A DNA stretch of 13,475 nucleotides. Source: Nitrososphaerota archaeon (GTDB taxonomy: Archaea > Thermoproteota > Nitrososphaeria > Nitrososphaerales > Nitrosopumilaceae). The position numbers and the translations under genes are program-made. The stretch is taken from positions 65,311 through 78,785 of the forward strand of contig NVWC01000003.1 of NCBI GenBank assembly GCA_002317795.1, in the 5' to 3' direction. This document shows, piece by piece, positions 1,344 through 13,475 of the stretch (position 1 is its first letter; each line of letters opens with the position of its first letter). The notes under the pieces are model-generated. The model was not told the DNA's origin and ran no database searches. It worked only from the letters and a program-made list of their open reading frames with translations.

Positions 1344-1429
1344 AGATCTCAAAGAATCATTGTTGAATATTAAATCATTTGAAAATACTTTAGCTTAAAT
1401 AGAATATAGATAACGTGTTTACCTGACTA

Positions 1430-1468
1430 TTATGTCCGAAAACATCGGACATAAGTGCGGACATAAGT
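1430..1468. repeat. Palindrome TTATGTCCGA-N5-TCGGACATAA plus a tandem second CGGACATAAGT
   Basis: Arms at 1430-1439 and 1445-1454; CGGACATAAGT at 1446-1456 and 1458-1468; same core as the att repeat. Confidence 0.8.
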
Positions 1469-1482
1469 AAATTCTTAATTTT

Positions 1483-1584
1483 AGTCATAGCTATCAGTCA
1501 TAGCTAGTTGTAGCTAGATGTGCGTGATAAGGACTGTAATCATAGCTAGATATTACATTTCTATTCACAGCTAGTCATAGCTAG
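1483..1584 (+). repeat. Cluster of six AGCTA(G)-core repeats (iteron- or operator-like)
   Basis: AGTCATAGCTA at 1483, 1496, 1573; TAGCTAG at 1511; TCATAGCTAG at 1540; CAGCTAG at 1568. Confidence 0.7.
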
Positions 1585-1604
1585 TTTTCATTAATGAAAA
1601 ATAA

Positions 1605-1620
1605 TAATGTCCGATTCTAT
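1605..1620 (+). repeat. Putative attL, TAATGTCCGATTCTAT
   Basis: 16/16 identical to 13323-13338; upstream of the integrase. A 13-bp partial copy at 1688-1700 makes the exact left end uncertain. Confidence 0.7.
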
Positions 1621-1727
1621 TTTCATTATGTCCGTTAACGTTTTTCTATTTGACAACAAGGAAAAAAAGATATACTAACTGTTTAATATGTCCGATTCTA
1701 ATAATGTATAATGGCTTATGGTAGGAT

Positions 1728-1979
1728 TACTATTCATCGCAAATTTTTAGTTGTCCAGTAAATCCATGAGCCACTATTGATAATTATTATTTCCAGTTTT
1801 AGTATTTCAACACTACTATGCAAAAATCACATGATCACACTTTACTGAGAATCATAATTGATTAATGTCTGATGTGTCACATAAAAATTAGATCAACAAA
1901 GTTTACACTTGGATATACTTTTTTGACTCAGTAATAATCAAATAGTATATCCTTTCTCATTAAGTTGCGATGAATAGTA
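1728..1979. repeat. 15-bp perfect inverted repeat pair
   Basis: TACTATTCATCGCAA at 1728-1742 and TTGCGATGAATAGTA at 1965-1979. Confidence 0.8.
1911..1952. promoter_or_regulatory. Putative operator upstream of the integrase operon: GGATATAC-N26-GTATATCC
   Basis: Inverted octamers at 1911-1918 and 1945-1952; TCAAATAGTATATC (1938-1951) recurs exactly at 6487-6500. Confidence 0.6.
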
Positions 1980-2031
1980 TAGGCATATCTAAAACAGAAA
2001 TTTTCTGCATTAATTCGCAGGGAATTAACTA

Positions 2032-3336
2032 TTGTCTCTAGAGACTCAAAGCCAAGAATCTAGAACAGGACGAGCAATCAGACTTCATGGAAAAAAAGTC
2101 TCATGGAGTGAACTTTGTAATTACATTCTTGATCTAATTGAGAATGAAAAAATTACTGGAACTGATGCTTTATCCAAACAATTAGGAAAAACACCAAAGC
2201 AAACTAGACGATATTTGCTAAAAATGGCTCAAGATGGTAAAATCACTCTTGATGCTGATACTGGACGACTAGAAAAAACACAAAAAGCAGTCAATCATGA
2301 GAAATTTGAACGACTGCAGAAATCTGATTTTGGAAAAATTAGAGAAATAGGAAGATGGTTTGGAAATCTCACTTGCAAGCCAGCAGTAGCAGCCAATTAT
2401 CAATATTCTCTCAAAAGAATTTTTGATAAAATTATGGTAAATCCTTCTGCTGCACTAGCTTCAAAACAAGCATTTATTGAAACTTGGAAAACTTTCAAAG
2501 ATTTCAATGATGCAGATATGGGAGTTGGTCATGATCAATGTTATAGAATAGCATTTAGAAGTCTAGGAGATGAGTTTGATTATCACATCAATCTTGCATT
2601 AGGAAAAAAAATTGGACTAACATCAAAACACGATTCATACAAAAAATATGCCGGAGCTGCACTTTCTACAACTCTAACAAAAATTATCGGTAAAGAAATG
2701 CTAGAGAATGGAGATTTTGAAGTCTATACTTGGTTTAGAATTGGATGCAGAACCGGAGGCAGAACTGGAGCAATAGCTTCAATGACATGGGATAAAATTG
2801 TATTTGATGAAGAAAATTTTGAAGTAGCACAACACGAAACAAAAGATCCAAGAGGCGATGAATGGATTGGAGAGGATGGAGAATGGCAAAGAAAACTTCC
2901 AGCTATTGATCTCCTACACGTTTTAAAACATTGGAAAAATCTCGATGAATCTCCAAATTCAAAATTTGTTTGGTTTGAAGATAAAGGATCTGATATTGCA
3001 AACAGAAAAGCAATTCTAAAAATTAGAAGTAGAGTAATCAAAACTCTCAGAAGATATCTAGAACAACACTACGATGAAATGGATCTGCTAACAAGAGAAT
3101 ATGCACAGATTGAACCCGGTCACTTGTTGAGACATACATTCGCACAACTTCTCAGAGATGAAGGTGCAACAAGTGAACAAATCAGAGTTGCCGGATGCTG
3201 GAAATCTGCAGAAATTATTTCATGGTACACAGCAGCTTCAAAATCTGAAAAAGATGTTATCAAGAGAATAGGAGCTAAAGTTGATTCATTTTCTCAAGAA
3301 GAATCTGACATCATGCTTGGAGGTAAGAAAAATTGA
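2032..3336 (+). CDS. Tyrosine recombinase/integrase with N-terminal winged-HTH-like domain
   Basis: Catalytic motifs TGGRTGAI (R), HETK (K, tentative), HLLRHTFA (HxxR), AGCW (H/W), SWYT (Y); N-terminal TDALSKQLGKTPKQTRRYLLKMAQDGKI is wHTH-like; TTG start. Confidence 0.92.
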   Translation: MSLETQSQESRTGRAIRLHGKKVSWSELCNYILDLIENEKITGTDALSKQLGKTPKQTRRYLLKMAQDGKITLDADTGRLEKTQKAVNHEKFERLQKSDFGKIREIGRWFGNLTCKPAVAANYQYSLKRIFDKIMVNPSAALASKQAFIETWKTFKDFNDADMGVGHDQCYRIAFRSLGDEFDYHINLALGKKIGLTSKHDSYKKYAGAALSTTLTKIIGKEMLENGDFEVYTWFRIGCRTGGRTGAIASMTWDKIVFDEENFEVAQHETKDPRGDEWIGEDGEWQRKLPAIDLLHVLKHWKNLDESPNSKFVWFEDKGSDIANRKAILKIRSRVIKTLRRYLEQHYDEMDLLTREYAQIEPGHLLRHTFAQLLRDEGATSEQIRVAGCWKSAEIISWYTAASKSEKDVIKRIGAKVDSFSQEESDIMLGGKKN

Positions 3337-3851
3337 AAAAACCTCAAAGCTTCTCCTGTGAAGAATCAAAATGGACAGCTTTAGAGCCTATTGCAAAAAA
3401 AGAAGGACTATCAAGAAATCAAGTAATTCAAAAATATATTGATAGAGTTGTTGCAACTGGAGAAATAGAGCCTAAATCTCAAACTCAAGGATCTATTGAT
3501 TCTCAACTAAAAGCAGAACAACTGACAAAAGCACAAAATTCAAACTCTGTTTTTGATCTCAAGAAAAGAGAACTAACTGCTAATGTAGAAATCAAAGAGT
3601 ATCATGCAAACAGTCTAGGAACAATAGGTGCAACACCTTCTCCAGCAGCTCATCGAGCTATGGAACACTATGTCAACCAAACTCAACCATACGATGAGAA
3701 AGCAATTCATTGTCCAGATTGTAAATGGCAAACAAGCTCTAGAGATACTACAAACTATCAAATCAATTCTCTAGTTGGTCACATGAAGATTGAACATCTA
3801 AGAGCACTAACTGAAAAAGAATCTGAACAATTAACGGAGTTGTTGATTTGA
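3333..3851 (+). CDS. DNA-binding protein: N-terminal ribbon-helix-helix plus C-terminal C2H2 Zn finger
   Basis: QSFSCEESKWTALEPIAKKEGLSRNQVIQKYI fits RHH; CPDC...HMKIEH; TTGA overlap with the integrase stop, GGAGGT upstream. Confidence 0.75.
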   Translation: MKKPQSFSCEESKWTALEPIAKKEGLSRNQVIQKYIDRVVATGEIEPKSQTQGSIDSQLKAEQLTKAQNSNSVFDLKKRELTANVEIKEYHANSLGTIGATPSPAAHRAMEHYVNQTQPYDEKAIHCPDCKWQTSSRDTTNYQINSLVGHMKIEHLRALTEKESEQLTELLI

Positions 3852-4012
3852 GTAAAGAACTATTCTCTTTGAGAATTACAACTCAATATGTGGCAATTAA
3901 TTTTGGAAAGAAATTATTTTTTATTTCTCCAGAATGGATAAGTTTGAATTTACAATATAGAATTGTGTATTTTCAAAAAGTAACTTTGTCAAGATGGAGA
4001 AGTAAATTTTGA
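3848..4012 (+). CDS. 54-aa hypothetical protein; not in ORF track
   Basis: MSKELFSLRITTQYVAINFGKKLFFISPEWISLNLQYRIVYFQKVTLSRWRSKF*; TTGA overlaps at both ends. Confidence 0.6.
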   Translation: MSKELFSLRITTQYVAINFGKKLFFISPEWISLNLQYRIVYFQKVTLSRWRSKF

Positions 4013-4155
4013 TTGATGCAGAACTTTACAAAGTTCTAAAACATCTTAGAGAAAAACTTTGTCAAAAAATGGATGATGCACCTTTTCAAACTGGAGCTGT
4101 AATCCAACTGGAAAGACTTGATGCAATCGATACAATCATGGAGATGATAAGCTGA
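4009..4155 (+). CDS. 48-aa helical hypothetical protein; not in ORF track
   Basis: MIDAELYKVLKHLREKLCQKMDDAPFQTGAVIQLERLDAIDTIMEMIS*; TTGA overlap, GGAGA at 3996-4000. Confidence 0.65.
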   Translation: MIDAELYKVLKHLREKLCQKMDDAPFQTGAVIQLERLDAIDTIMEMIS

Positions 4156-4241
4156 TGGAACTATTTTGCAAACAATGCGGACGACCTGAAAGATACTGTA
4201 TCTGTTTCAAAAAATTTAGGGAGAGATTAATTGAAATCTGA
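4155..4241 (+). CDS. 28-aa four-cysteine microprotein; not in ORF track
   Basis: MELFCKQCGRPERYCICFKKFRERLIEI*; TGATG coupling, GGAG upstream; CxxC...CxC. Confidence 0.6.
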   Translation: MELFCKQCGRPERYCICFKKFRERLIEI

Positions 4242-4320
4242 TCTCTGGAATCCTATTTGCAGAAATAAAAAATCTGTTAGAACTCAAACAGGAATACAAA
4301 AAGGAATTGAAGAATTTTGA
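4231..4320 (+). CDS. 29-aa hypothetical microprotein; not in ORF track
   Basis: MKSDLWNPICRNKKSVRTQTGIQKGIEEF*; GGGAG upstream; fills the gap in the coupled chain. Confidence 0.45.
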   Translation: MKSDLWNPICRNKKSVRTQTGIQKGIEEF

Positions 4321-4478
4321 AATCAAAAATCATCAAAGATGAAAATGGAATCTCTTGGAGACAATATCGCACAAAATCCAAAGATGCTGGAGATTTCATA
4401 ACATCTGAAAAAATAACCTTTCTCAGTCGTAAAATCATTAATCAAAACAGCATGGTATCTGGGGAATCAAATCTATGA
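4317..4478 (+). CDS. 53-aa hypothetical protein; not in ORF track
   Basis: MKSKIIKDENGISWRQYRTKSKDAGDFITSEKITFLSRKIINQNSMVSGESNL*; TTGA and ATGA overlaps. Confidence 0.6.
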   Translation: MKSKIIKDENGISWRQYRTKSKDAGDFITSEKITFLSRKIINQNSMVSGESNL

Positions 4479-4624
4479 CTAGAGAGTGTCCTTTTTGTGA
4501 AATTCCAATACATTTCCTTTATGGTAGTAGAGGAGAAAAAGTTGAGATTTGGAATTGCAAACCATGCGGATTTGTAAGAATCTACACCGATTCAAATGTT
4601 GACATTGAGAGGTATCATCAATAA
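4475..4624 (+). CDS. 49-aa Zn-ribbon protein; not in ORF track
   Basis: MTRECPFCEIPIHFLYGSRGEKVEIWNCKPCGFVRIYTDSNVDIERYHQ*; CxxC-x19-CxxC; ATGA and TAATG overlaps. Confidence 0.75.
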   Translation: MTRECPFCEIPIHFLYGSRGEKVEIWNCKPCGFVRIYTDSNVDIERYHQ

Positions 4625-4824
4625 TGCAATTAGATCTTGAAGGATTTGAAATTCCTTACACTTGCAAAAAGTGTGGACGATGTTTTGCAACAATGCAACA
4701 ATCATCAAGACATCATGCAAGATTTCACAAAAACAAATACAGAAAATATACTTTGATTAATTTTACATTGGAAAATTATAGTCTAGTGTCAACTCAGGAG
4801 ATTCAAATTGAAATGTCAAACTGA
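4624..4824 (+). CDS. C2H2 zinc-finger protein, 66 aa
   Basis: YTCKKCGRCFATMQQSSRHHARFH matches Y-x-C-x2-C-x3-F-x8-H-x4-H. Confidence 0.8.
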   Translation: MQLDLEGFEIPYTCKKCGRCFATMQQSSRHHARFHKNKYRKYTLINFTLENYSLVSTQEIQIEMSN

Positions 4825-5077
4825 ATTAGAAAAAGAAAAATCTTTTCTGGAATTGTATTTTAATAGATACAGAAAACATTTGATTTGCCAACTGATGAGA
4901 GTTAAAAAAAACTTTACTCCATATACTACAGGTCAAAAAAGATGTAAAAAATGTGATGTTTATTATTCAATTCCAGATTCATATTGTCCTTGTTGTGGTT
5001 ATCAACTTAGAACAAAAGCTCGAAACAAAACAACAACACTTCATGATGAAATTAGGAGGAAAAAAGAAATTGACTAA
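4808..5077 (+). CDS. Zn-ribbon protein, 89 aa
   Basis: GQKRCKKC...YCPCCGYQLRTK; GGAG at 4797-4800 before the TTG. Confidence 0.75.
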   Translation: MKCQTELEKEKSFLELYFNRYRKHLICQLMRVKKNFTPYTTGQKRCKKCDVYYSIPDSYCPCCGYQLRTKARNKTTTLHDEIRRKKEID

Positions 5078-5204
5078 AGAAGGAACTATTGGATTAACAT
5101 TAAGAGAAGATTATTACAATAGATTAAAAATAATTGCAAAGATTAGAAAATTCAAATCAGTTCAACAAATGATCTACAAAACTTTTCTTGGAGTTTCAAA
5201 ATGA
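5070..5204 (+). CDS. 44-aa RHH-like DNA-binding protein
   Basis: MTKEGTIGLTLREDYYNRLKIIAKIRKFKSVQQMIYKTFLGVSK*; GGAGG at 5055-5059 supports TTG 5070 rather than the track start 4953. Confidence 0.65.
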   Translation: MTKEGTIGLTLREDYYNRLKIIAKIRKFKSVQQMIYKTFLGVSK

Positions 5205-5335
5205 ATTGTTGTATTCGTGGATGCCCTAAAACTAAAAAATCCTCAACCCATAATTGCTGGATGAATTGGGGAATGTGTGGAACTCATGCAAGAGAAATTG
5301 TTAGATTTTACAGAGATGTAAAAAAAAGAATGTAA
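5201..5335 (+). CDS. 44-aa Cys/His-rich putative Zn-binding protein; not in ORF track
   Basis: MNCCIRGCPKTKKSSTHNCWMNWGMCGTHAREIVRFYRDVKKRM*; ATGA overlap; stop abuts the convergent gene. Confidence 0.7.
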   Translation: MNCCIRGCPKTKKSSTHNCWMNWGMCGTHAREIVRFYRDVKKRM

Positions 5336-5560
5336 TTAAATTTGAAAAATATCTTTTACAAAAAAATATAATCCTGTTGGTACTCCTATTATAGTTCCAA
5401 TGACGCCGATTAATAATATGATTTTCTTAGATAATCTTTGTGTGCGTGTTGCTTCTGAATAATGTTTCCAGCAAAAATCTTTATCTTTAGAAGAATGTGT
5501 TGCAGGCTCTCCACATGATTCTTTATCACATGCTTTCTTTCGTCGATTAACTAAGGGCAT
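5336..5560 (-). CDS. 74-aa protein with a C-x4-C...C-x2-H motif and C-terminal transmembrane helix
   Basis: CDKESC...FCWKH, then IILLIGVIGTIIGVPTGLYFFV; ATG at 5560. Confidence 0.75.
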   Translation of the reverse strand: MPLVNRRKKACDKESCGEPATHSSKDKDFCWKHYSEATRTQRLSKKIILLIGVIGTIIGVPTGLYFFVKDIFQI

Positions 5561-5595
5561 GAAAAATATTATCAATAATTGATAATTTAATGATT

Positions 5596-5787
5596 CTAAA
5601 CAGCTGATTTTGGATGATAAATTTCTGCTTTCGTTTCTAATTTTGCAATTCTTTCTCCATGACTTCTAAACAGATTATCAAAACAACCCATTTTTTTAAG
5701 CATGAATAACCCAAATCCCGTGCCTACTGAGGTCACTATTGTTATGATTCCAAGAAAAAAGGTTTGAAGAGTCTCGATTTCACTCAA
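5596..5787 (-). CDS. 63-aa single-TM protein with short coiled-coil tail
   Basis: FFLGIITIVTSVGTGFGLFML hydrophobic segment followed by HGERIAKLETK; TTGA overlap with the upstream gene. Confidence 0.75.
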   Translation of the reverse strand: MSEIETLQTFFLGIITIVTSVGTGFGLFMLKKMGCFDNLFRSHGERIAKLETKAEIYHPKSAV

Positions 5788-5963
5788 GATTTCTCACTCA
5801 TGAACAGAAACGTTGCAGCTGATGCAATAGCACCTGAAACAATAGGAATCACACTCTCTGCAAGTGGCAGATCTAGTGCAGAGGTTGCAATTAATGCTCC
5901 AGTTCCTCCGATGATAACTATTGCAGCAGTAAATCTTGAAACAGGTTTCTCAATTTGTTCCAT
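5784..5963 (-). CDS. 59-aa two-TM hairpin membrane protein; not in ORF track
   Basis: MEQIEKPVSRFTAAIVIIGGTGALIATSALDLPLAESVIPIVSGAIASAATFLFMSEKS*; starts right after the upstream stop, GGAGG upstream. Confidence 0.8.
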   Translation of the reverse strand: MEQIEKPVSRFTAAIVIIGGTGALIATSALDLPLAESVIPIVSGAIASAATFLFMSEKS

Positions 5964-6383
5964 TTAGATTCTGCCTCCAGTTGTTTTTAATTTCTCAGCT
6001 CTTGAAATTATGTGGCTTTTTCTATCTGTTGGAATCATTCTCAACTGAGAATGAATTTCTTGGAATTTTTTTAACCAATCTTCATTTCTATATCTTTGAT
6101 TTTTGCGAATCAATTTCAAATATACTTTTGTTAGCAAATCAAAAGCTAAATTCTCAATTTTTTCTAGTTTGAATTTTTCTGCTAGTTGATTTACTAACTC
6201 TAATTCTTTCAAATATTCTGTAATGTTGTCTCTGTACAGGTTGCTTACTGTTCCTTGGTCATAATGTTGTTTGAAAGATATTATTTTTTGCTTTGCTGAT
6301 TCAACGGTTCTTACTCCAATAAAATGCGGATCTGAATTACCGTCTGTTATTTCTTTAGCTATTTGTTTTGGATCTATTCCCAT
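5964..6383 (-). CDS. Helical hypothetical protein, 139 aa
   Basis: First gene of the minus-strand operon, 20 nt downstream of the shared promoter element; no motif recognised. Confidence 0.75.
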   Translation of the reverse strand: MGIDPKQIAKEITDGNSDPHFIGVRTVESAKQKIISFKQHYDQGTVSNLYRDNITEYLKELELVNQLAEKFKLEKIENLAFDLLTKVYLKLIRKNQRYRNEDWLKKFQEIHSQLRMIPTDRKSHIISRAEKLKTTGGRI

Positions 6384-6403
6384 AAGTTACAAAATTAATT
6401 TTA

Positions 6404-6513
6404 CTATGTAACACCGGTATATCTAAAAAGGATATACGATATACTTTGTGACTAGGATATATCTATCCATTTTGGATATACCCGTGTCAAATAGTATATC
6501 TTAAAGTATATCC
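6404..6513. promoter_or_regulatory. Divergent promoter region with two copies of the shared promoter element and several GATATAC boxes
   Basis: Minus copy 6404-6425, plus copy 6475-6494; GATATAC or GTATATC at 6417, 6431, 6438, 6475, 6494, 6506. Confidence 0.75.
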
Positions 6514-6515
6514 TT

Positions 6516-6695
6516 ATGCCTAAATTTAAAAAATTGGTATGTCTCGATGAAAAATGTGGAGATATACTAAACTCAGAAAAAAATTATTCAAAATACATTA
6601 GAGATGCAATTATTTTTTATGACAACTCGAAAAAAAATATTGAAACTGTTGAAGCAACAGTACCTCAACCAATAGTTACGGAGCTTACATCTTGA
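6516..6695 (+). CDS. 59-aa RHH-like transcription regulator; not in ORF track
   Basis: MPKFKKLVCLDEKCGDILNSEKNYSKYIRDAIIFYDNSKKNIETVEATVPQPIVTELTS*; strand-helix-N-x-S-x-YIR-x-AI pattern; TTGA coupled to the next ORF. Confidence 0.7.
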   Translation: MPKFKKLVCLDEKCGDILNSEKNYSKYIRDAIIFYDNSKKNIETVEATVPQPIVTELTS

Positions 6696-7132
6696 CTGAC
6701 TTCAAAGATTACATGATTGAACTTCCTCCTATTGATGATACTTGCAAGGATGGAAAATGTGAACATGTCCACAAAGTAAAAGTATCAAACAAACCTCCAC
6801 AACCAAAAATTGAATCAATAACTGCACCTGCACCAACAGTTTCAGAGGAAAAACATGACCATTCTCACGATCTAGAGGTAAATCATAACCAATTAGCAGA
6901 AATAATGCCCGGTGGAACTAACTTTGCCAAATGTGCAGATGGTTCTTGTGGCAATTCAGTGATTCAGAACTCAAAACTTACTAAAAAATTCAAAAAATGT
7001 ACAAACTGCGATTCTAATGCAGTTCCAAAGAAAAATGATTTCTGCCCTACTTGCGGAAACAAGCCCGAAGATGCTGAAGAATGGGATGATTCAGAAATTG
7101 ATTCAGAAAAGATAGGAGAAGATGAAGAATGA
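6692..7132 (+). CDS. Cys/His-rich putative metal-binding protein with acidic tail, 146 aa
   Basis: CKDGKCEHVH, HDHSH, CADGSC, CTNC...CPTCG; D/E-rich C-terminus. Confidence 0.8.
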   Translation: MTDFKDYMIELPPIDDTCKDGKCEHVHKVKVSNKPPQPKIESITAPAPTVSEEKHDHSHDLEVNHNQLAEIMPGGTNFAKCADGSCGNSVIQNSKLTKKFKKCTNCDSNAVPKKNDFCPTCGNKPEDAEEWDDSEIDSEKIGEDEE

Positions 7133-7344
7133 ATGGCAATCCTGACGAAATGATGCAAGAGTTTATTGGAATTCTTAAAAAATCTGCTGAATCTGCAAAT
7201 TCACTTCAAGAAGAACAAATGGCACAACATCAAAAAGATTTGCTAGAGCCAAAGAAAAAATATTATAAAATTGAAGGATTTTTTTCTGCAATCCAAATGC
7301 AAAAACTAGCAGAGTTTCTAAAGGATGAGATTTTCAATGAGTAG
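7129..7344 (+). CDS. Hypothetical protein, 71 aa
   Basis: ATGA overlap, GGAG upstream. Confidence 0.7.
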   Translation: MNGNPDEMMQEFIGILKKSAESANSLQEEQMAQHQKDLLEPKKKYYKIEGFFSAIQMQKLAEFLKDEIFNE

Positions 7345-7882
7345 TGAAGAATTTCCAGAAGCTCCAGAGCCTAAATTAACTCCGGAACAAATGGAGGAAT
7401 CACAAAAAATTAAAGAAAAACTCCAAAAAACAAAAGAAGCTCTAGGAATTACTAGAATGAATGAAGATATGTCTGAACTACGAGCTGAAATTCATTCAGT
7501 TGCAACAAATCTAAACAAACTATGTGATGCTTTAGGATCTGCAAACAATGCAAATCAACAACAAGCTCAATCACAACAACAAACTCAATCAGATGAAATT
7601 CCTCCAGAGCAAAAAATGCTTTTACTAAAAGATGGAATTGCTGGAGTTGCAGATTTAGTTAAAGCTTGGAAGGGAACAACAGCTTCACCACAAATGCAAC
7701 AGCAAAATGATTTTCAATCAATGATTATGCAATCCTTTGCAAAAATGATTCAAGCTAAAGTTGATGAGACAATTTTCTCAACTTATGGAACACAAATTCC
7801 AGTTGACCAACTCCAACAAGTAAGAAATATTCAAAATCAAGCTGCAAACATTGCTCAAGCAACGCCAGCTTTTGAGAAGTAA
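7337..7882 (+). CDS. Gln-rich coiled-coil protein
   Basis: Heptad-like MSELRAEIHSVATNLNKL and Q-rich tracts; ATG 7337 (MSSEEF) preferred, 7325 possible. Confidence 0.75.
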   Translation: MSSEEFPEAPEPKLTPEQMEESQKIKEKLQKTKEALGITRMNEDMSELRAEIHSVATNLNKLCDALGSANNANQQQAQSQQQTQSDEIPPEQKMLLLKDGIAGVADLVKAWKGTTASPQMQQQNDFQSMIMQSFAKMIQAKVDETIFSTYGTQIPVDQLQQVRNIQNQAANIAQATPAFEK

Positions 7883-7921
7883 TGGAACTGAAAAAGAGGT
7901 TAAGGAGAGAAGCGAAACAAG

Positions 7922-8329
7922 ATGCAAAAAGAGCTAGACGAGATATTAAAATCAATAACAGGAAAATCGCTAAATTCCTCATCGGCAAACCTATCAAAAC
8001 CTAAACAATTTGCTATCAAACTCATTGATGCATTTGATTCAATGGCTTCTGCTAACGCAAAAACAAACTTCACTCAATCTGTATGGAAATCAATCAAATG
8101 GTACATGAAAAATAAAATTATTCCACAAAAATCAGATAAAGAAACCATTGCAGATTTGCGAAAAATGAAAGAAACTATTGATCCGTTATTTCGTACACTA
8201 GACAAAGCAGAAGATGCACTTGATGATAGAAAATTAAATTCTACTAATGGAATAAAATCAAAAGCTCAAGTCTTTGTTGAAAGCATTCCAGATGTCAAAG
8301 CAGCTTTGGAGGTTCTAGATGAGATTTGA
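7922..8329 (+). CDS. Helical hypothetical protein, 135 aa
   Basis: GGAG at 7904-7907; TTGA coupling to the next gene; start uncertain because of an overlapping ORF at 7882-8004. Confidence 0.7.
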   Translation: MQKELDEILKSITGKSLNSSSANLSKPKQFAIKLIDAFDSMASANAKTNFTQSVWKSIKWYMKNKIIPQKSDKETIADLRKMKETIDPLFRTLDKAEDALDDRKLNSTNGIKSKAQVFVESIPDVKAALEVLDEI

Positions 8330-8607
8330 ATGTAAGCTGCTCTGATAAAAAATCTGTTTTGGGTTTTACTTGTACAGGATCTGATGAATCACATGTTTGG
8401 AAATTTATCAAAACAAAATTGCTTGATATGTTTCATTGTGGAACTTGTTCGATGCATGCAGAAAAATTATTTAATGGATTACATTCAATGGTTTCTTTAG
8501 GAATTGGAAAACCATTAGAGAAAGAAGAATGGAAAACTAATTTTAGAAATTTTGTTGCAGAAGTTAATCTAGTTTACAATACAGCTTTGAAGGATGGAAG
8601 AATTTGA
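8326..8607 (+). CDS. 93-aa protein with ERV/ALR-like sulfhydryl oxidase motifs (tentative)
   Basis: W25, C38-x2-C41-x2-H44, H53-x2-V56-x4-G-K-P63; GGAGGT upstream, TTGA coupling. The ORF is solid; the function is inferred. Confidence 0.5.
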   Translation: MNVSCSDKKSVLGFTCTGSDESHVWKFIKTKLLDMFHCGTCSMHAEKLFNGLHSMVSLGIGKPLEKEEWKTNFRNFVAEVNLVYNTALKDGRI

Positions 8608-8816
8608 GAGACATTAATTTAGAATTAGGATCTGTTGTACGATGTCCCGAATGTGGAGACAGAATTCCATCTAGTCAAGTAATGATTCAAAGACATTTTG
8701 TAGACAAACACAAAATTGTAGACCAATTAAAAAAGAGAGAGAAAGGATGGAGGTTTCAAGAAGTTAGACAAATTAGAAATCCATTATCATTGAAGAATAT
8801 CTTTGGTCGTGCCTAA
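8604..8816 (+). CDS. C2H2 zinc-finger protein, 70 aa
   Basis: VRCPECG...IQRHFVDKH; TTGA overlap. Confidence 0.75.
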   Translation: MRDINLELGSVVRCPECGDRIPSSQVMIQRHFVDKHKIVDQLKKREKGWRFQEVRQIRNPLSLKNIFGRA

Positions 8817-8823
8817 TTCCAGC

Positions 8824-8845
8824 TAGATATACCCGTGTTACATAG
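8824..8845 (+). promoter_or_regulatory. Putative promoter element of the structural operon, TAGATATACCCGTGTTACATAG
   Basis: 21/22 identical to the reverse complement of 6404-6425; ends 21 nt before ATG 8867. Confidence 0.75.
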
Positions 8846-8866
8846 CTAGAAAGATCTGTTTTCTTT

Positions 8867-8980
8867 ATGGCTACTGCAAAACAACTAGCACAACAGACTC
8901 GATTTAGAAAAGCTGCTAAAGCTTGTAAAGGTAAACCGGGCTATCGTGCATGTTTGAGTAAGCAGCTTAGGAAAAAATAG
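8867..8980 (+). CDS. 37-aa highly basic two-cysteine protein (candidate nucleoprotein); not in ORF track
   Basis: MATAKQLAQQTRFRKAAKACKGKPGYRACLSKQLRKK*; 12 K/R, no D/E; first ATG after the promoter element. Confidence 0.7.
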   Translation: MATAKQLAQQTRFRKAAKACKGKPGYRACLSKQLRKK

Positions 8981-8983
8981 AAA

Positions 8984-9055
8984 ATGAAACGAAAATGCAA
9001 AAACGGTGTTAACAAAAGCACCAAAAAGTGCTTAAAGCACAAGAGGAGCAGATAA
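8984..9055 (+). CDS. 23-aa highly basic two-cysteine peptide; not in ORF track
   Basis: MKRKCKNGVNKSTKKCLKHKRSR*; 11 K/R, no D/E; TAATG coupling to the next gene. Confidence 0.55.
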   Translation: MKRKCKNGVNKSTKKCLKHKRSR

Positions 9056-9423
9056 TGAAAACCATTACTATTCCGGGACAAAAAACTTTACAAAAGTTAT
9101 TGCCACCAGCAAAAGGATATGTACAAAATTCTTTTACTGGAATCGGATTTGGTAGAGGTGTAAGAGCATTAGATACAAAATTTTTGAAAGGCTTCCTACA
9201 AAGAATTGGATTTACTATTCCAGTTGTAAGAGTAAGAGCCGATTCGATTGATTTTGTTAATTTTGCTTTACACAATAGAGGTTTGAATCTGAAAAAAGAA
9301 GGATTCATTGCTGTAGGTGCAGACAAAGGAGTCGACATTATGTTGAACTCTAGTAACTTCAAAATTCCCACAAGTTTTGAGGATACTATCGCACAAGCTA
9401 ATGCATTGGAGGTATTTGAATAA
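9055..9423 (+). CDS. 122-aa putative virion protein upstream of the capsid gene
   Basis: GAGGAG at 9043-9048 supports ATG 9055 (MKTITIPG) over GTG 9028; TAATG coupling at both ends. Confidence 0.65.
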   Translation: MKTITIPGQKTLQKLLPPAKGYVQNSFTGIGFGRGVRALDTKFLKGFLQRIGFTIPVVRVRADSIDFVNFALHNRGLNLKKEGFIAVGADKGVDIMLNSSNFKIPTSFEDTIAQANALEVFE

Positions 9424-10361
9424 TGCCTAAAATGTACAAATTAGTTACAGACTATGATCCCGGAATAGCAGTAGAGACAAAAGAATGGGATCTACCTAGC
9501 GATGATAAGAGAATACTAAAATGTCTTATCCTCGATATTGTAGGACAAAGAAACGGAGTAGCAGACCCAACAAGACAAGTCGTAGCTTCACAGCTCGATG
9601 AAATCAAAGTTGGTGTTGCAGCTAATCCGGAAGTCTCCAGAATCTTAGGTGAGGATTTGTATAACAACAATGTGTTGTTAGGAAATCGACCTATCTTTGA
9701 TGGAGGCGGAGCAGACAATTCAAGAGTTTCTCTTGGAATGGTTTTGCCACTTGACCCATTTATGATGTCACCACAAATCGACTATCATCAACCTTACGGA
9801 ATGCCCGGAGGAATTGCTAGTCAATTATCAGTCAAATTTGATGCAGATGATGCAGCTTTTGACGGTAAAAAATTAACAGTTGGTGTAATCTCTAGTTTGA
9901 TTTCGGATCTAGGAGGATTCTCAAAACTACAAGGGTACATGAGTTATACAAGACACTCTGATACTATGGCAGTTGGAACAGAAAAGAGTTATGCAATCCC
10001 TCAACCGGGTAAACTCTTAGGTGTCCAATTCTTTGAAACAACTTCATTTGCTGACATAATCGCCGATGGTGAATATAGAAGCACACAATCAATTCAAGAA
10101 GCCAGTATTACAAGAGGCGAAAATGTAACTCACGGAGCATTACCTACAACTACATTCGGAATTATGAATGGAGCAGATGTTACAGAGCTAACCGACCAAG
10201 GTTATTCTTTGTGGAATCTGGGTATTCATAACAAAGTTGGAAGTTTAGGCATTCCTGATAAAGGAAGAATCCCATCTAACTTGAAAGTCAAGGTTTTAGG
10301 TGGAGTTGCTGATGCTGTACGAATTGTACCAATAACCCTCAACGATAAGTTAACTGTATAG
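9423..10361 (+). CDS. Probable double jelly-roll major capsid protein, 312 aa
   Basis: Beta-strand-rich with two ~150-aa halves showing parallel motif order; size and position fit DJR capsid proteins; fold inferred by eye. Confidence 0.7.
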   Translation: MPKMYKLVTDYDPGIAVETKEWDLPSDDKRILKCLILDIVGQRNGVADPTRQVVASQLDEIKVGVAANPEVSRILGEDLYNNNVLLGNRPIFDGGGADNSRVSLGMVLPLDPFMMSPQIDYHQPYGMPGGIASQLSVKFDADDAAFDGKKLTVGVISSLISDLGGFSKLQGYMSYTRHSDTMAVGTEKSYAIPQPGKLLGVQFFETTSFADIIADGEYRSTQSIQEASITRGENVTHGALPTTTFGIMNGADVTELTDQGYSLWNLGIHNKVGSLGIPDKGRIPSNLKVKVLGGVADAVRIVPITLNDKLTV

Positions 10362-10366
10362 GAGAT

Positions 10367-10768
10367 TTGAAAAAATTGAATATCGGTCAAACTATCCCCT
10401 TTTCTTTTTTTGATAGCCAAGATGTAACTTTAACAAATTATGCTATTGGTGATGTTGTTTTAGAATCAAGAAAAATTCCGGAAGGATTTACTGGAATTGT
10501 AAAAGATAATGATACTGTTTTTACAACTCCTGGAGGATCTGTTGATTATGTTATTAAAAGAGCCGCTGGAGGTTCTAAAGTATTTCGTAATGCTGTAAGC
10601 TCTGATGATTCAGGTTTTATTAATAAAAATTTGAGAACTGGAGACAGAATCCAAATTATTTTAAATGCTACTGGAGTCGGAGTTTTAGATTTAGTTTGGG
10701 ATGGAATCTTAAAAAAAATTAGTGAAGTAACAGATGAATCAGGTTTTGAAGAGGAGGAAGATTTCTAA
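10367..10768 (+). CDS. Beta-rich putative minor capsid protein (single jelly-roll candidate) with acidic tail
   Basis: Alternating-hydrophobic strands (SVDYVIK, DRIQIILN, VLDLVWDG); directly after the capsid gene; in-frame TTG 10376 is better spaced from GGAG at 10361. Confidence 0.55.
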   Translation: MKKLNIGQTIPFSFFDSQDVTLTNYAIGDVVLESRKIPEGFTGIVKDNDTVFTTPGGSVDYVIKRAAGGSKVFRNAVSSDDSGFINKNLRTGDRIQIILNATGVGVLDLVWDGILKKISEVTDESGFEEEEDF

Positions 10769-11397
10769 TGGGAATTTTATCAATTCCATTCAAAGGAACT
10801 GTTATCAAGGTTGTTCTAGCTGGTGTTGTAATTGGTGGAGCAGTTTATGCAGCTGACAAACTTAATCTTGGAACTAGAGTCTCTGATGGTGCAAATCAAT
10901 TAGGACAAGCTGGAGGAAATGCAATCACTCAACCAATCGCCGGATTAGTTGATTCACTAACTAAAGGAATTAGAGACATTCAATTAAACACTCAAGGACT
11001 TTTTGAAGGATTAGGATCTGCTGGTGCAGATGTTCAAGAAGCTTTTACTGGAAATAGGGATGCTATCAAAGATTTCTTTGATGGAAATGAAAGACAAGAG
11101 TTTAGAGCTTCTGATATATTCGGATCTAGTTTAGAAGAACTCTCAAAAAGTGTAACTGACAATTTTTTATCACAATCAGCTAGAACAAGTGTGAGAGAAA
11201 CTGCAGAAAGTTCTGGAAGCTTTAGCAACTTTTTAACTGACATTGCTAAATCTTTTAATCCAGAAAAAGATACTCCAACAGCCGGATTCTATATTGTCAC
11301 TTTCAGAGATGGTCGAGAAAGTGTTGCTATGCCGTTATCAGCTCAAGCTGTAGAACAATTCAAAGATGCTGGAAATTCTGTTAGAAGGGTTGGTTAA
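10768..11397 (+). CDS. Membrane-anchored putative virion protein, 209 aa
   Basis: N-terminal VIKVVLAGVVIGGAVYAA hydrophobic helix followed by G/A/S-rich amphipathic segments; GAGGAGG upstream, TAATG coupling. Confidence 0.7.
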   Translation: MGILSIPFKGTVIKVVLAGVVIGGAVYAADKLNLGTRVSDGANQLGQAGGNAITQPIAGLVDSLTKGIRDIQLNTQGLFEGLGSAGADVQEAFTGNRDAIKDFFDGNERQEFRASDIFGSSLEELSKSVTDNFLSQSARTSVRETAESSGSFSNFLTDIAKSFNPEKDTPTAGFYIVTFRDGRESVAMPLSAQAVEQFKDAGNSVRRVG

Positions 11398-11399
11398 TC

Positions 11400-12701
11400 A
11401 TGGGACTTTATGCCAGTTCTGGAGTTTTACTAACTCAATCAACTCAACCATCTAATCCCGGAGTCGGTGATTTGTGGTATGATACTGTAAACAAATTACT
11501 CAAAGGATTTGATGGAACTGAATATGTTACTCTGGGCAAAACAAATTTTTCAAATGCTACAATTACAAGTCACTCAGAAACAATCGGGAATTATTCTCAA
11601 CCTAGTAATGCAGTAGTGACAACTCCAGATACAAGTGCAATCTTAGATGATGATTTAACATCAAGTGCCAACTTTACAATTTCTGCTGATAATTGGACTT
11701 ATGATGCAATCAATGACGAAATTGATTTAGCAGCTGGTCAAGGTGGTGTTTATCGTGGGGCAAGATTTGACCCTGTTGGTGCAAATATTTCTACATCAAA
11801 ATGGTTATTGAGATTTAAAATAAGGGTTGATTCGATCACCTCATATTCAAGTGGGAATCATGCCGGTGCAATGTTTTTTGGATTTACTGATAAAATCACA
11901 AGTGTTATGACGGATTTACAGGATGCAGTGGGAATTATTTTTCAGACAAACCCTAACACATGGCGTAACCTCATAAAAGATAACGAGCAAATTAATGGTG
12001 GCACAACCGCATTTGCTCATGCTCCAACAATCGAAACACTCTACATTGAGATTGAAAATAATGCAGGTGCTTTGTCTATGCGTATGTATTCTGATGTTGC
12101 CAGAACAGTATTAATTGAAGAGGAAACAGGTTCTATAGGTTTAGTTACAGGATTAAGATATTTACATTTTCAAGGTTATAGTTACACTCCATTTGTTTCT
12201 GCTAGTGGTGGTTTAAATGGTGCAGTAGATGATGTCCAATTTTGGAATGGAATCAATAAAACTGAAATGCTAGCTGGTTCTGGTAGTGAAGTTTTTGATG
12301 ATAGTACCGGAACAAAATGGAATAGTAATGTAGAAACAAATCCAGCTGTTTACATTGATCTTGGTTCATCAAAAAATATTTTAGGAGTTGCAATTCATCT
12401 TCATGCAGATAATACAGAAACTGAATTTAAAATTAGATGTAGTGCAGATACAAGTTTTTCAGATGCAGAAAATGTTAGAACTATTACAGTTTCAAATTTA
12501 ACAGCTGGAGCTTGGAAGTTCATAAGATTCAATTTGAAATACAAAAGATATTTACAAATTTACGGATCTAGTGGTTCAAGTCTAGTAATGGCAATTAGTG
12601 AAATAAAATATTTGACTATGACTGATAATGATTTGAAAAATGATGAAGGAATCTTGGAGATTTCATCAAGTGATACAAGTATAGGACTAGATGGAGTTTA
12701 A
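11400..12701 (+). CDS. Putative spike/receptor-binding protein with C-terminal F5/8 type C (discoidin/CBM32-like) domain, 433 aa
   Basis: N-terminal QPSNPGVGDLWYDTVNKLLKGFDG fibre-type motif; VFDDSTGTKW...VYIDLG...RYLQI...ISEI discoidin pattern; central beta-sandwich. Confidence 0.75.
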   Translation: MGLYASSGVLLTQSTQPSNPGVGDLWYDTVNKLLKGFDGTEYVTLGKTNFSNATITSHSETIGNYSQPSNAVVTTPDTSAILDDDLTSSANFTISADNWTYDAINDEIDLAAGQGGVYRGARFDPVGANISTSKWLLRFKIRVDSITSYSSGNHAGAMFFGFTDKITSVMTDLQDAVGIIFQTNPNTWRNLIKDNEQINGGTTAFAHAPTIETLYIEIENNAGALSMRMYSDVARTVLIEEETGSIGLVTGLRYLHFQGYSYTPFVSASGGLNGAVDDVQFWNGINKTEMLAGSGSEVFDDSTGTKWNSNVETNPAVYIDLGSSKNILGVAIHLHADNTETEFKIRCSADTSFSDAENVRTITVSNLTAGAWKFIRFNLKYKRYLQIYGSSGSSLVMAISEIKYLTMTDNDLKNDEGILEISSSDTSIGLDGV

Positions 12702-12702
12702 A

Positions 12703-12840
12703 ATGCCTAAAGTAAAACGTCCAGATTTGAAGAAAAAACCTGTAAATGATAAGGAAAGAATTGATAGATTAGAGTTTTTTGTGGCTAAATTATTAAAAAA
12801 TGCAAAAATTATTGATGCTGACAAGGATTCAACGTGGTAA
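12703..12840 (+). CDS. 45-aa protein with short coiled coil; not in ORF track
   Basis: MPKVKRPDLKKKPVNDKERIDRLEFFVAKLLKNAKIIDADKDSTW*; GGAG upstream; 1-nt gaps to both neighbours. Confidence 0.7.
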   Translation: MPKVKRPDLKKKPVNDKERIDRLEFFVAKLLKNAKIIDADKDSTW

Positions 12841-12841
12841 A

Positions 12842-13240
12842 ATGACTATTCTTGATGAATTAAAAGCTCAACTTGTACAGGCTAAAGACAGATTACTCTC
12901 CATTGAAAATCTACACAAATCTATTGGAGCACCAAATGGATCTAGAAGTGTATTAAGAAAATTAGATAAATTGGTCGATGATAGAGGTAATGCCATATTA
13001 TCCATTAGAAATATTGAGAATGACATTAAAGAACAATCTGCAAGACTTGAAGAAAGAGCTGCAACTTCTACTATTGCAGATGATCGGAGTGCTGGTTCTA
13101 TAGCAACAACAAGCTCTTTTCTTAATGGAATCACTGAAAAAATTACTGGACTTGTAAAAAATCCCCTAGCTATTGGAGTTGTTGTTGTTGCAGCTGGTGC
13201 AATTATCTATTCTAAAAAATCACGTACCTCCAAACGCTAA
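12842..13240 (+). CDS. Coiled-coil protein with C-terminal TM anchor, 132 aa
   Basis: ATG 12842 (MTILDELK) preferred over 12800; PLAIGVVVVAAGAIIY followed by basic SKKSRTSKR. Confidence 0.75.
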   Translation: MTILDELKAQLVQAKDRLLSIENLHKSIGAPNGSRSVLRKLDKLVDDRGNAILSIRNIENDIKEQSARLEERAATSTIADDRSAGSIATTSSFLNGITEKITGLVKNPLAIGVVVVAAGAIIYSKKSRTSKR

Positions 13241-13322
13241 CGCGATAAAAAGCAACTTTGATTTACTTTGTACCGTCCCTTTGATTTCTCAATCAGACTT
13301 AATTGATTCTAGTCTAGTAGTG

Positions 13323-13338
13323 TAATGTCCGATTCTAT
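13323..13338 (+). repeat. Putative attR, TAATGTCCGATTCTAT
   Basis: Identical to 1605-1620; lies between the last element gene and purA. Confidence 0.75.
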
Positions 13339-13371
13339 AACTCTAAATAAACGGAATTAAAGTTCTACACT

Positions 13372-13475
13372 ATGACATCTACTGTAGTTGTTGGTGGATT
13401 TTTTGGAGATGAAGGTAAGGGAAAAATTATTTCATATTTGGCAATTAAAGATAATCCAAAAATTATAGTTCGTGG
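13372..13475 (+). CDS. purA: Adenylosuccinate synthetase, 5' part (runs off the window)
   Basis: [34 protein letters not shown]; GDEGKGK signature at the expected N-terminal position. Confidence 0.95.

Follow-up and report, generated by a model that had tools for sequence, protein, structure and literature searches.

An integrated, probably mobile element upstream of purA in a Nitrosopumilus archaeon: the likely genome of a tailless double jelly-roll virus

The 13,475-nucleotide stretch of DNA analysed here, called the window below, spans positions 65,311 to 78,785 of contig NVWC01000003.1 (C25:65311-78785) in an archaeal genome of 1.9 Mb that is 95.6% complete, and at 1402-13349 it holds an inserted element that carries an integrase gene and a gene whose product is predicted to adopt the double jelly-roll (DJR) fold of viral capsid proteins. 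The left flank of the window consists of host genes, and its right end is the start of purA (ATG at 13372), the N-terminal fragment of which matches PF00709 (E = 1.2e-5). Since a flanking protein of 156 residues is 83-86% identical to proteins of genomes named 'Nitrosopumilus sp.', the host is, by sequence, a Nitrosopumilus; a preliminary description of the window had pointed to a Nitrosopumilus-like host, in agreement with this identity. Of 60 other genomes from this genus, 58 have the left flank, and in nearly all of its strong matches the similarity ends at window positions 1401 to 1412.

To delimit the element, nine of 12 flank loci (L005, L006, L008, and L010-L015) were checked for an empty site, leaving out the genome's own locus (L004) and two loci that begin at contig ends (L007 and L009). 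In all nine of these Nitrosopumilus relatives, window position ~1401 is joined straight to ~13344, with a single TAAATA upstream of purA. A joint from 1395 to 13344 also occurs in contigs of the public sequencing runs X2, X5, and X6 (depths of 8.6, 53.5, and 8.0, respectively), where 11,948 bases are skipped and 6 bases are common to both sides. Because the relatives and the run contigs share this joint, the element is 1402-13349 (equally 1396-13343), i.e., 11,948 bases with one copy of the core. The left TAAATA core copy, the crossover region of attL, occupies 1396-1401; the element body (1402-13343, + strand) is absent from all nine relatives and forms part of a single contig (1396-13349) in runs X1 and X2; and the right core copy, at attR (13344-13349), lies 23-28 bases upstream of the purA ATG. 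Bases 1402-1604 are likewise missing from all nine relatives and hence are part of the element. The preliminary description had given the element an extent of 1605-13338 (~11.7 kb) between 16-bp terminal direct repeats. The repeat exists and can be read directly in the sequence, but its left copy lies 204 bases inside the element, so it does not mark the termini, and the relatives and run contigs move the ends to 1402 and 13349. The same description had proposed looking among relatives for an empty site upstream of purA, which was found in every one examined, and had named as a competing view that the genes are conserved chromosomal core; the empty sites, together with the absence of the capsid gene from 40 of 40 relatives, rule against that view. 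The locus thus shows the features of a provirus mobilised by a tyrosine recombinase, namely an intact integrase, a duplicated core, an empty site in relatives, and a precise, excision-type joint.

Evidence for activity came from the sequencing runs, of which X1 to X4 may be source samples of the assembly and so are not independent of it. In X1 and X2, the element is assembled as one contig of 11,954 bases (1396-13349), cut exactly at both cores. X2 also contains three 54-base contigs that lie wholly on the window: one spans the left junction (1372-1425), one the right junction (13320-13373), and one the empty site. In a fourth 54-base contig, which has a depth of 64.8 in X1 and 13.1 in X2, 30 bases lie on 1396-1425 and 24 elsewhere. 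At k = 31, a junction running through one shared 6-base core measures exactly 54 bases, and because the fourth contig has this expected length, it would represent the junction of a circle or a tandem, although that junction was not seen directly. Depths on the left side add up in both runs (136.9 + 64.8 vs. 198.3 in X1; 20.3 + 13.1 vs. 31.9 in X2), as they do in X2 for the empty-site contig (20.3 + 8.6 vs. 28.1). In X5, which belongs to a second study, pieces of the element with no differing bases are joined to both flanks at a depth below that of the empty site; therefore, occupied and empty chromosomes coexist in the X5 sample. The exact empty-site form accompanies the occupied site in both X2 and X5, and the element is probably mobile at present. 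Low-depth contigs in X1 and X2 match the element briefly and then diverge (at 2245, 3537, 4947, 7214, and 10384), a sign that these samples may contain related variants or recombinants.

The 312-residue product of 9423-10361 (+ strand) was modelled with AlphaFold2, using its relatives as the alignment, and the resulting model is all-beta, with a predicted local distance difference test score (pLDDT) of 86.1 and a predicted template-modelling score of 0.87. Compared with the PDB by Foldseek, it gave 94 matches at E ≤ 0.001, and all 21 of the matches listed are DJR capsid proteins, including PRD1 P3, PR772, PBCV-1, PM2 P2, STIV, Sputnik, an iridovirus, and EhV-201. The Foldseek probability was 1.00 for PRD1, PBCV-1, PM2, and STIV, with the best E value for PRD1 (1hqn; 1.3e-12) and template-modelling (TM) scores of 0.60/0.67 for PM2 (2vvf) and 0.67/0.61 for STIV (3j31). 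In BFVD, the best match was the capsid protein of the tectivirus Wip1, a Bacillus phage (E = 1e-16). When three copies were predicted together, they formed a ring trimer with a score of 0.91, against 0.00 for the best control; contacts agreed to at least 82% between the three runs, and the pLDDT of the partners was 86 or more. Of the solved pairs put to the same calibration mark, 20 of 30 reached it, as did 1 of 23 single chains. These models provide good support for 9423-10361 as the DJR major capsid protein (MCP), and they speak against a non-capsid fold, which the preliminary description had named as the result that would overturn its viral reading. The adjoining gene, 10367-10768 (+ strand), encodes a 133-residue protein with homologues in 10 loci, which is modelled as an eight-stranded beta-sandwich (pLDDT 82.6); it may be the vertex protein of the capsid, and 'penton' is here a candidate label.

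At the sequence level, the capsid protein belongs to a sparse family. Just 17 relatives were found at E ≤ 0.001 among 1.84 billion representative proteins, and a profile search returned 16 proteins, including the window's own, none named beyond 'hypothetical protein'. When PDB sequences were compared with the capsid profile (17 sequences) at E ≤ 1, one spurious match to an integrase (E = 0.78) and no STIV chain appeared. No relative was found by pattern-based scans of IMG/VR (capsid protein, alignment A2, P0032, and P0016), by a scan of the genome contig collection with alignment A2, or by tblastn of the capsid protein against GenBank phage records. Among genomes, the capsid gene was found in none of 40 relatives, in 1 of 400 from the family, and in 1 of 400 from the class; the two 400-genome draws overlap, and their one hit is identical, a partial match to a 2.5-kb contig from another genus. 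In family f15, none of 78 genomes matched the capsid profile, and within the class the only family with a match was the window's own. In locus L128 (G281:C280:1-2500), from another genus of the family, one strand carries homologues of 6692-7132, 7922-8329, and 8326-8607 and the opposite strand a capsid N-terminus, an arrangement unlike that of the window; here a related virus may have been binned with the archaeal genome.

A single metagenome scan yielded 12 loci in which the capsid gene has the same neighbours in the same order. The shared order runs through 5784-5963, 6692-7132, 7325-7882, 8326-8607, 8604-8816, the pre-capsid protein, and the capsid protein, and continues with the beta-sandwich protein, an anchored 209-residue protein, and a lectin-like C-terminus. 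Seven of the loci carry a counterpart of 8326-8607; identity by tblastn is 39% in L024 and 57-67% in the other six. The window's integrase, the block 3333-5335, and its last gene have no counterparts in the 12 loci. Because of their terminal repeats (310 bases with 8 mismatches in L023; 135 bases with 5.9% mismatches in L018) and because L021 bridges both ends of L023, L023 and L018 look like free circular genomes of ~12.6 and ~12.2 kb, respectively. Each carries its own, non-orthologous integrase, and the repeats upstream of these two integrase genes, compared as att-like repeats, share no clear motif. L023 also has genes that are not in the window: a 174-residue protein with a HELGH motif and no Pfam match (L023:1650-2174), possibly a metallopeptidase; a Dam-type methyltransferase (L023:10519-10965; PF05869, E = 5e-16); and a GIY-YIG nuclease (L023:11061-11348; PF01541, E = 6e-10).

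The element as a whole contains 30 open reading frames (ORFs) in four blocks, with 90% coding density and many 4-base overlaps; all 30 are open and tightly coupled, and this independently made gene list bears out the earlier count of about 30 tightly coupled ORFs in four blocks. The integrase gene (2032-3336, + strand), which had been described as uninterrupted and proved to be so, encodes a 434-residue tyrosine recombinase that exceeds the Pfam cutoff (PF00589, E = 8.5e-7; 29.3 bits vs. 27.1) and matches a PHROG integrase (E = 2.4e-8). Along its sequence are the strings RTGGR (residue 240 onward), HLLRH (364 onward), GCW (388 onward), and SWY (397 onward), which we take to be the catalytic arginine, the His-x-x-Arg box, the tryptophan, and the tyrosine. 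Integrases related to it at 36-46% identity were found in 14 of 400 other genomes of the Nitrosopumilaceae, a count that includes the unpublished genomes G152 and G275, and nine of the 14 belong to one other genus. Six of the integrase-bearing regions were examined and are unrelated elements, since they have nothing in common with this one but the integrase. The loci with integrase relatives (L111-L121 and L122-L127) suggest a pool of exchangeable integrases.

Downstream of the integrase gene, 3333-3851 (+ strand) encodes a weakly ribbon-helix-helix-like protein and candidate regulator (PF13467, E = 0.0012, below the family cutoff; PHROG CopG-like repressor, E = 0.008), followed at 3848-5335 (+ strand) by a variable block of eight small ORFs of 44-89 residues, several of them cysteine-rich, with no Pfam match and no homologue in the metagenomic relatives. 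The divergent block at 5336-6383 (- strand) holds three small proteins with hydrophobic stretches (79, 63, and 59 residues, by hydrophobicity scan) and a 139-residue protein; within it, 5784-5963 (- strand) is predicted to encode a small membrane protein with homologues in five metagenomic loci. The conserved middle operon (6516-8816, + strand) has homologues in five to eight of the 12 metagenomic loci and includes two zinc-ribbon proteins (6692-7132 and 8604-8816) and the best conserved protein of the family, a CxxC protein at 8326-8607 (+ strand) that is 62-69% identical to four relatives in alignment A4, in which W25, C38-x-x-C41, H44, and H53 are invariant. Sequence searches lent no support to a reading of the CxxC protein as an ERV/ALR sulfhydryl oxidase: with a threshold of E ≤ 10 in each case, none of six family members matched the corresponding Pfam family, and a profile search of the PDB returned no ERV/ALR chain.

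Between the middle operon and the capsid gene lie two basic two-cysteine micro-ORFs (8867-9055, + strand) of 37 and 23 residues, with 12 and 11 lysines or arginines, respectively, and no acidic residues, which are candidates for DNA-condensing peptides. A basic two-cysteine micro-ORF stands directly upstream of the pre-capsid gene in each of the five relatives examined (L023:2216-2302, L018:2898-2990, L019:5281-5367, L016:6689-6790, and L024:3049-3126); across the window and these relatives, the peptides have 23-37 residues, 11-13 lysines or arginines, two cysteines, and no acidic residues. The small conserved pre-capsid protein of 122 residues (9055-9423, + strand) has homologues in seven loci and no family or fold lead, and a protein atlas search gave no usable match for 8326-8607 or 9028-9423. 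Beyond the capsid and beta-sandwich genes, 10768-11397 (+ strand) encodes the 209-residue protein with an N-terminal hydrophobic anchor (by hydrophobicity scan) and metagenomic homologues. The Walker-like string ALGGFGKT in L017, L019, and L023 falls in the homologue of this protein, is absent from the window, and was set aside as chance. The 433-residue product of 11400-12701 (+ strand) is a candidate spike or receptor-binding protein with a C-terminal galactose-binding-like domain at residues 298-386 (PF22633, E = 1.5e-8; 35.6 bits vs. a cutoff of 27.8), and its L023 homologue matches PF00754. The last two ORFs (12691-13240, + strand) encode proteins of 49 and 146 residues, the longer with a C-terminal hydrophobic anchor. 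Scans of the ORFs with Pfam, PHROGs, and NCBIfam matched no terminase, portal, tail, polymerase, Rep, or ATPase family, which for terminase, portal, and tail genes accords with the preliminary description; the NCBIfam scan of the window proteins gave nothing meaningful.

Repeated motifs cluster around the attachment site. The 16-base repeat TAATGTCCGATTCTAT occurs at 1605-1620 and at 13323-13338 (both + strand); the left copy may be an arm-type site, and the right copy ends 5 bases before the core. Its 13-base core, ATGTCCGATTCTA, has exactly three exact copies, at 1607, 1688 (1688-1700, + strand), and 13325. Allowing up to three mismatches, the 13-mer is not clearly enriched (9 matches vs. 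4.2 expected; 5 of 200 shuffles reach 9). ATGTCCG, on the other hand, occurs seven times in the window against 0.34 expected, a number reached by none of 200 shuffles; six of its sites lie at 1432-1694 and one at 13325, so that on a circle all seven would flank the core. The 16-base repeat is thus a real, non-random motif around the attachment site and resembles a binding site. A palindromic pair together with a third ATGTCCG site (1430-1468; inverted repeat 1430-1439/1445-1454, 10/10 complementary) provides candidate binding sites for the integrase or a regulator. At 1485-1584 (+ strand), five iterons of TCATAGCTAG form a candidate replication origin or regulator array; with at most one mismatch the motif has seven matches in the window, five of them in this array, against 0.68 expected, and none of 200 shuffles reaches seven. 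Upstream of the integrase gene there is also an 18-base inverted repeat (1728-1745/1962-1979), the arms of which are 94% complementary and 216 bases apart. The heptamer ATTCTAT (13332-13338) and its complement ATAGAAT (1399-1405) would be 8 bases apart on a circle. Half-sites 8 bases apart are the usual geometry of a tyrosine-recombinase core site, and the heptamers may be read as recombinase half-sites. TAAATA, 23-28 bases before the purA ATG, is presumably the purA TATA box, to judge by archaeal promoters in general. The right junction keeps TAAATA, so purA expression may survive integration.

Taken together, these findings make it likely that a temperate virus of a Nitrosopumilus archaeon, tailless and icosahedral with a DJR capsid, has its genome integrated at 1402-13349 of the window. 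Support is good for the insert, for the fold of the capsid protein, and for a temperate design, while ATPase-free encapsidation, an internal membrane, and the TATA box as target are features that we infer. A temperate virus, possibly of an unclassified lineage, had been proposed in the preliminary description; the integrase, the empty-site joints, and the free circular relatives support the first part of that proposal, and the second is supported by searches of GenBank phage records, IMG/VR, and the PDB, in which no sequence matched.

The features of the element suggest the following mechanism. The integrase would recombine TAAATA upstream of purA with a site on the viral circle that consists of the core and the ATTCTAT/ATAGAAT half-sites 8 bases apart, flanked by ATGTCCG sites. 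Integration would restore TAAATA, the probable purA TATA box, and excision would regenerate the empty site and a circle. Because no replication protein was found, the iterons at 1485-1584 might serve replication by host enzymes. The capsid would be built of MCP trimers, the beta-sandwich vertex protein, and the lectin-like spike; the genome would be condensed by the conserved protamine-like peptides and enclosed by co-assembly, not by an ATP-driven motor. Five small proteins with hydrophobic stretches, picked out by a crude hydrophobicity scan, hint at a possible internal membrane. In its most specific form, the proposal is that the element represents, as its first member anchored in a host, a family-level lineage of temperate DJR viruses of marine ammonia-oxidising archaea that have no packaging ATPase, condense the genome with protamine-like two-cysteine peptides and assemble the capsid around it, insert into and rebuild the purA TATA box, and are now excising and circularising in natural populations. 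We advance this composite tentatively, as a possibility somewhat short of an even chance.

Several observations weigh against this interpretation. The hallmark packaging ATPase of the realm is missing: the Walker A pattern [AG]x4GK[ST] has zero matches in the six frames of the window, so no packaging ATPase was found. Nor did the scans with Pfam, PHROGs, and NCBIfam find a replication protein in the ORFs of the element. The trimer result may reflect the model's memory of solved DJR trimers, the PDB fold matches of 10367-10768 are weak and generic (E ≥ 3e-3, TM 0.3-0.5), and the crude hydrophobicity scan is the only pointer to a membrane. The shared core of just 6 bases is short for an attachment site, and the half-site geometry, the TATA-box reading, and the function of the iterons are things that we infer. 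In the runs, the right-side depths overshoot (147.9 + 64.8 vs. 198.3 in X1; 28.6 + 13.1 vs. 31.9 in X2), X1 has no empty-site contig, and the run contigs list no joint that goes back from the right end to the left; a tandem double insertion would give the same junction. No RNA run holding the element was found, and no particle, transcript, or protein has been seen.

The missing genes could also be explained if the element were a helper-dependent satellite with a capsid shell of its own and a packaging motor or replication borrowed from another virus of the host. The small genome without a packaging ATPase or replication protein would fit such a lifestyle, as would the variant contigs that share short identical stretches with it in the same samples; but the whole family, circular relatives included, is without an ATPase and yet keeps the full conserved morphogenesis module, and no candidate helper was seen in the archaeon's own genome, where the capsid search matched the element only. 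ATPase-less DJR viruses also have precedent in the Odin and FLiP groups, as the relevant passages of PMC5894146 describe them, and we regard a satellite as improbable. The combination of a DJR capsid without an ATPase is, in those passages, that of FLiP, and about as improbable in our view is a FLiP-like virus with circular single-stranded DNA in its particles and a double-stranded replicative form that integrates. No rolling-circle Rep or HUH family was matched in the scanned ORFs, however, and the conserved basic peptides suit the condensation of double-stranded DNA. The 11.9-kb genome, moreover, exceeds that of FLiP.

We think it a little less probable still that the element is an inactive relic, or a non-viral integrative element that has kept a capsid-like gene. 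A relic would fit the lack of direct evidence of particles or expression, and the integrase family also occurs in unrelated elements (the 14 of 400 family genomes mentioned above); set against this are the 30 of 30 ORFs that are open and tightly coupled, the exact empty-site form beside the occupied site in X2 and X5, the contig breaks at both cores, which with the excess depth of the element indicate a second junction, the X5 pieces from a second study without differing bases, and the relatives that occur as free circles. Least probable of all, and very unlikely in our estimate, is an element that is confined to 1605-13338 and uses the 16-base repeat for recombination, so that 1402-1604 would be either host DNA or a remnant of greater age: the two copies of the 16-mer are identical, but 1402-1604 is missing from all nine relatives, every empty-site joint seen runs from 1395 to 13344, and the element contig in X1 and X2 starts at 1396, not at 1605. 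An integrated temperate DJR virus bounded by the TAAATA cores remains the explanation that we favour.

Among described systems, the nearest parallel, going by published description and not by a comparison of capsid sequences, is the ATPase-less 'Odin group' of DJR viruses (Yutin et al., 2018; PMC5894146). The passages on this group describe metagenomic viruses from marine sources with genomes of 7-11 kb, no ATPase, a small conserved pre-capsid gene, a beta-sandwich protein, a sporadic integrase, conserved ParB and PD-(D/E)XK nucleases, and no secure host. Judged against those passages, the element is alike in its DJR capsid, the lack of a detectable packaging ATPase, its small genome, its marine setting, the small conserved gene that has no known relatives and immediately precedes the capsid gene (9055-9423 here, in seven loci), and the beta-sandwich protein. 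It differs in that its scanned ORFs have no Pfam match to ParB or PD-(D/E)XK nucleases, in its 11.9 kb as against 7-11 kb, and in being integrated in a Nitrosopumilus chromosome. DJR proviruses have also been described in soil Thaumarchaeota, namely in Ca. Ns. gargensis and, as NitEve-E7, in Ns. evergladensis (Krupovic et al., 2019; PMC6563490). As far as the passages on them go, these Nitrososphaera proviruses were found with the STIV capsid as the seed and have an A32-like ATPase beside the capsid gene; they resemble the element in their thaumarchaeal host, integration, tyrosine integrase, DJR capsid, and size below 20 kb, whereas the element has neither the ATPase nor an STIV-detectable capsid, and its host is a marine Nitrosopumilus. 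Skuldviruses of Asgard archaea carry an ATPase, according to the relevant passage of their description (bioRxiv 10.1101/2021.07.29.453957), and the passages of a paper on viruses from beneath an ice shelf (PMC10721903) mention Nitrosopumilus viruses and Varidnaviria separately, without linking them.

PM2 (Corticoviridae) and STIV (Turriviridae) are similar to the element in capsid fold and in having small genomes, and its small hydrophobic proteins are compatible with an internal membrane when compared with these two viruses. The genomes of PM2 and STIV are circular. Both encode a packaging ATPase, however, and neither has sequence similarity to the element; PM2 further differs in its rolling-circle Rep, as a passage on corticoviruses has it, of which there is none in the element. 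Thaspiviridae are spindle-shaped viruses with linear genomes of ~27-29 kb, a protein-primed family B polymerase, and spindle-virus capsid proteins, and they are not known to integrate. They share with the element Nitrosopumilus as the host genus, whereas the element has a DJR capsid, an integrase, and circular relatives, and no polymerase family was matched in it. Of the features of the realm Varidnaviria and the kingdom Bamfordvirae, the DJR capsid fold and, by prediction, the trimer are present, and the A32-like FtsK-HerA ATPase was not found. As far as our searches reach, the element would be a DJR virus that lacks a packaging motor, whose capsid sequences form a family not represented among described viruses, and whose host group is new in print for such a virus. 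A full-text literature search yielded no description of a DJR provirus in Nitrosopumilus, with the qualification that the supplements of PMC5894146 and PMC6563490 lay outside its scope and may list a relative.

Nitrosopumilus and its kin are among the most abundant marine archaea and drive nitrification. To our knowledge, the only cultured viruses of the Nitrosopumilus group are spindle-shaped and non-integrating. An integrated, apparently mobile DJR virus would provide a concrete case of lysogeny in marine ammonia oxidisers, and it ties an ATPase-less jelly-roll virus to a secure host. Because its capsid family was not found in pattern-based scans of IMG/VR or in GenBank phage records, such viruses may be overlooked in routine surveys. 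The element also makes testable the question of how a capsid of this kind encloses double-stranded DNA without a motor and, if our interpretation is true, ATPase-independent DJR encapsidation would become approachable by experiment in a defined host.

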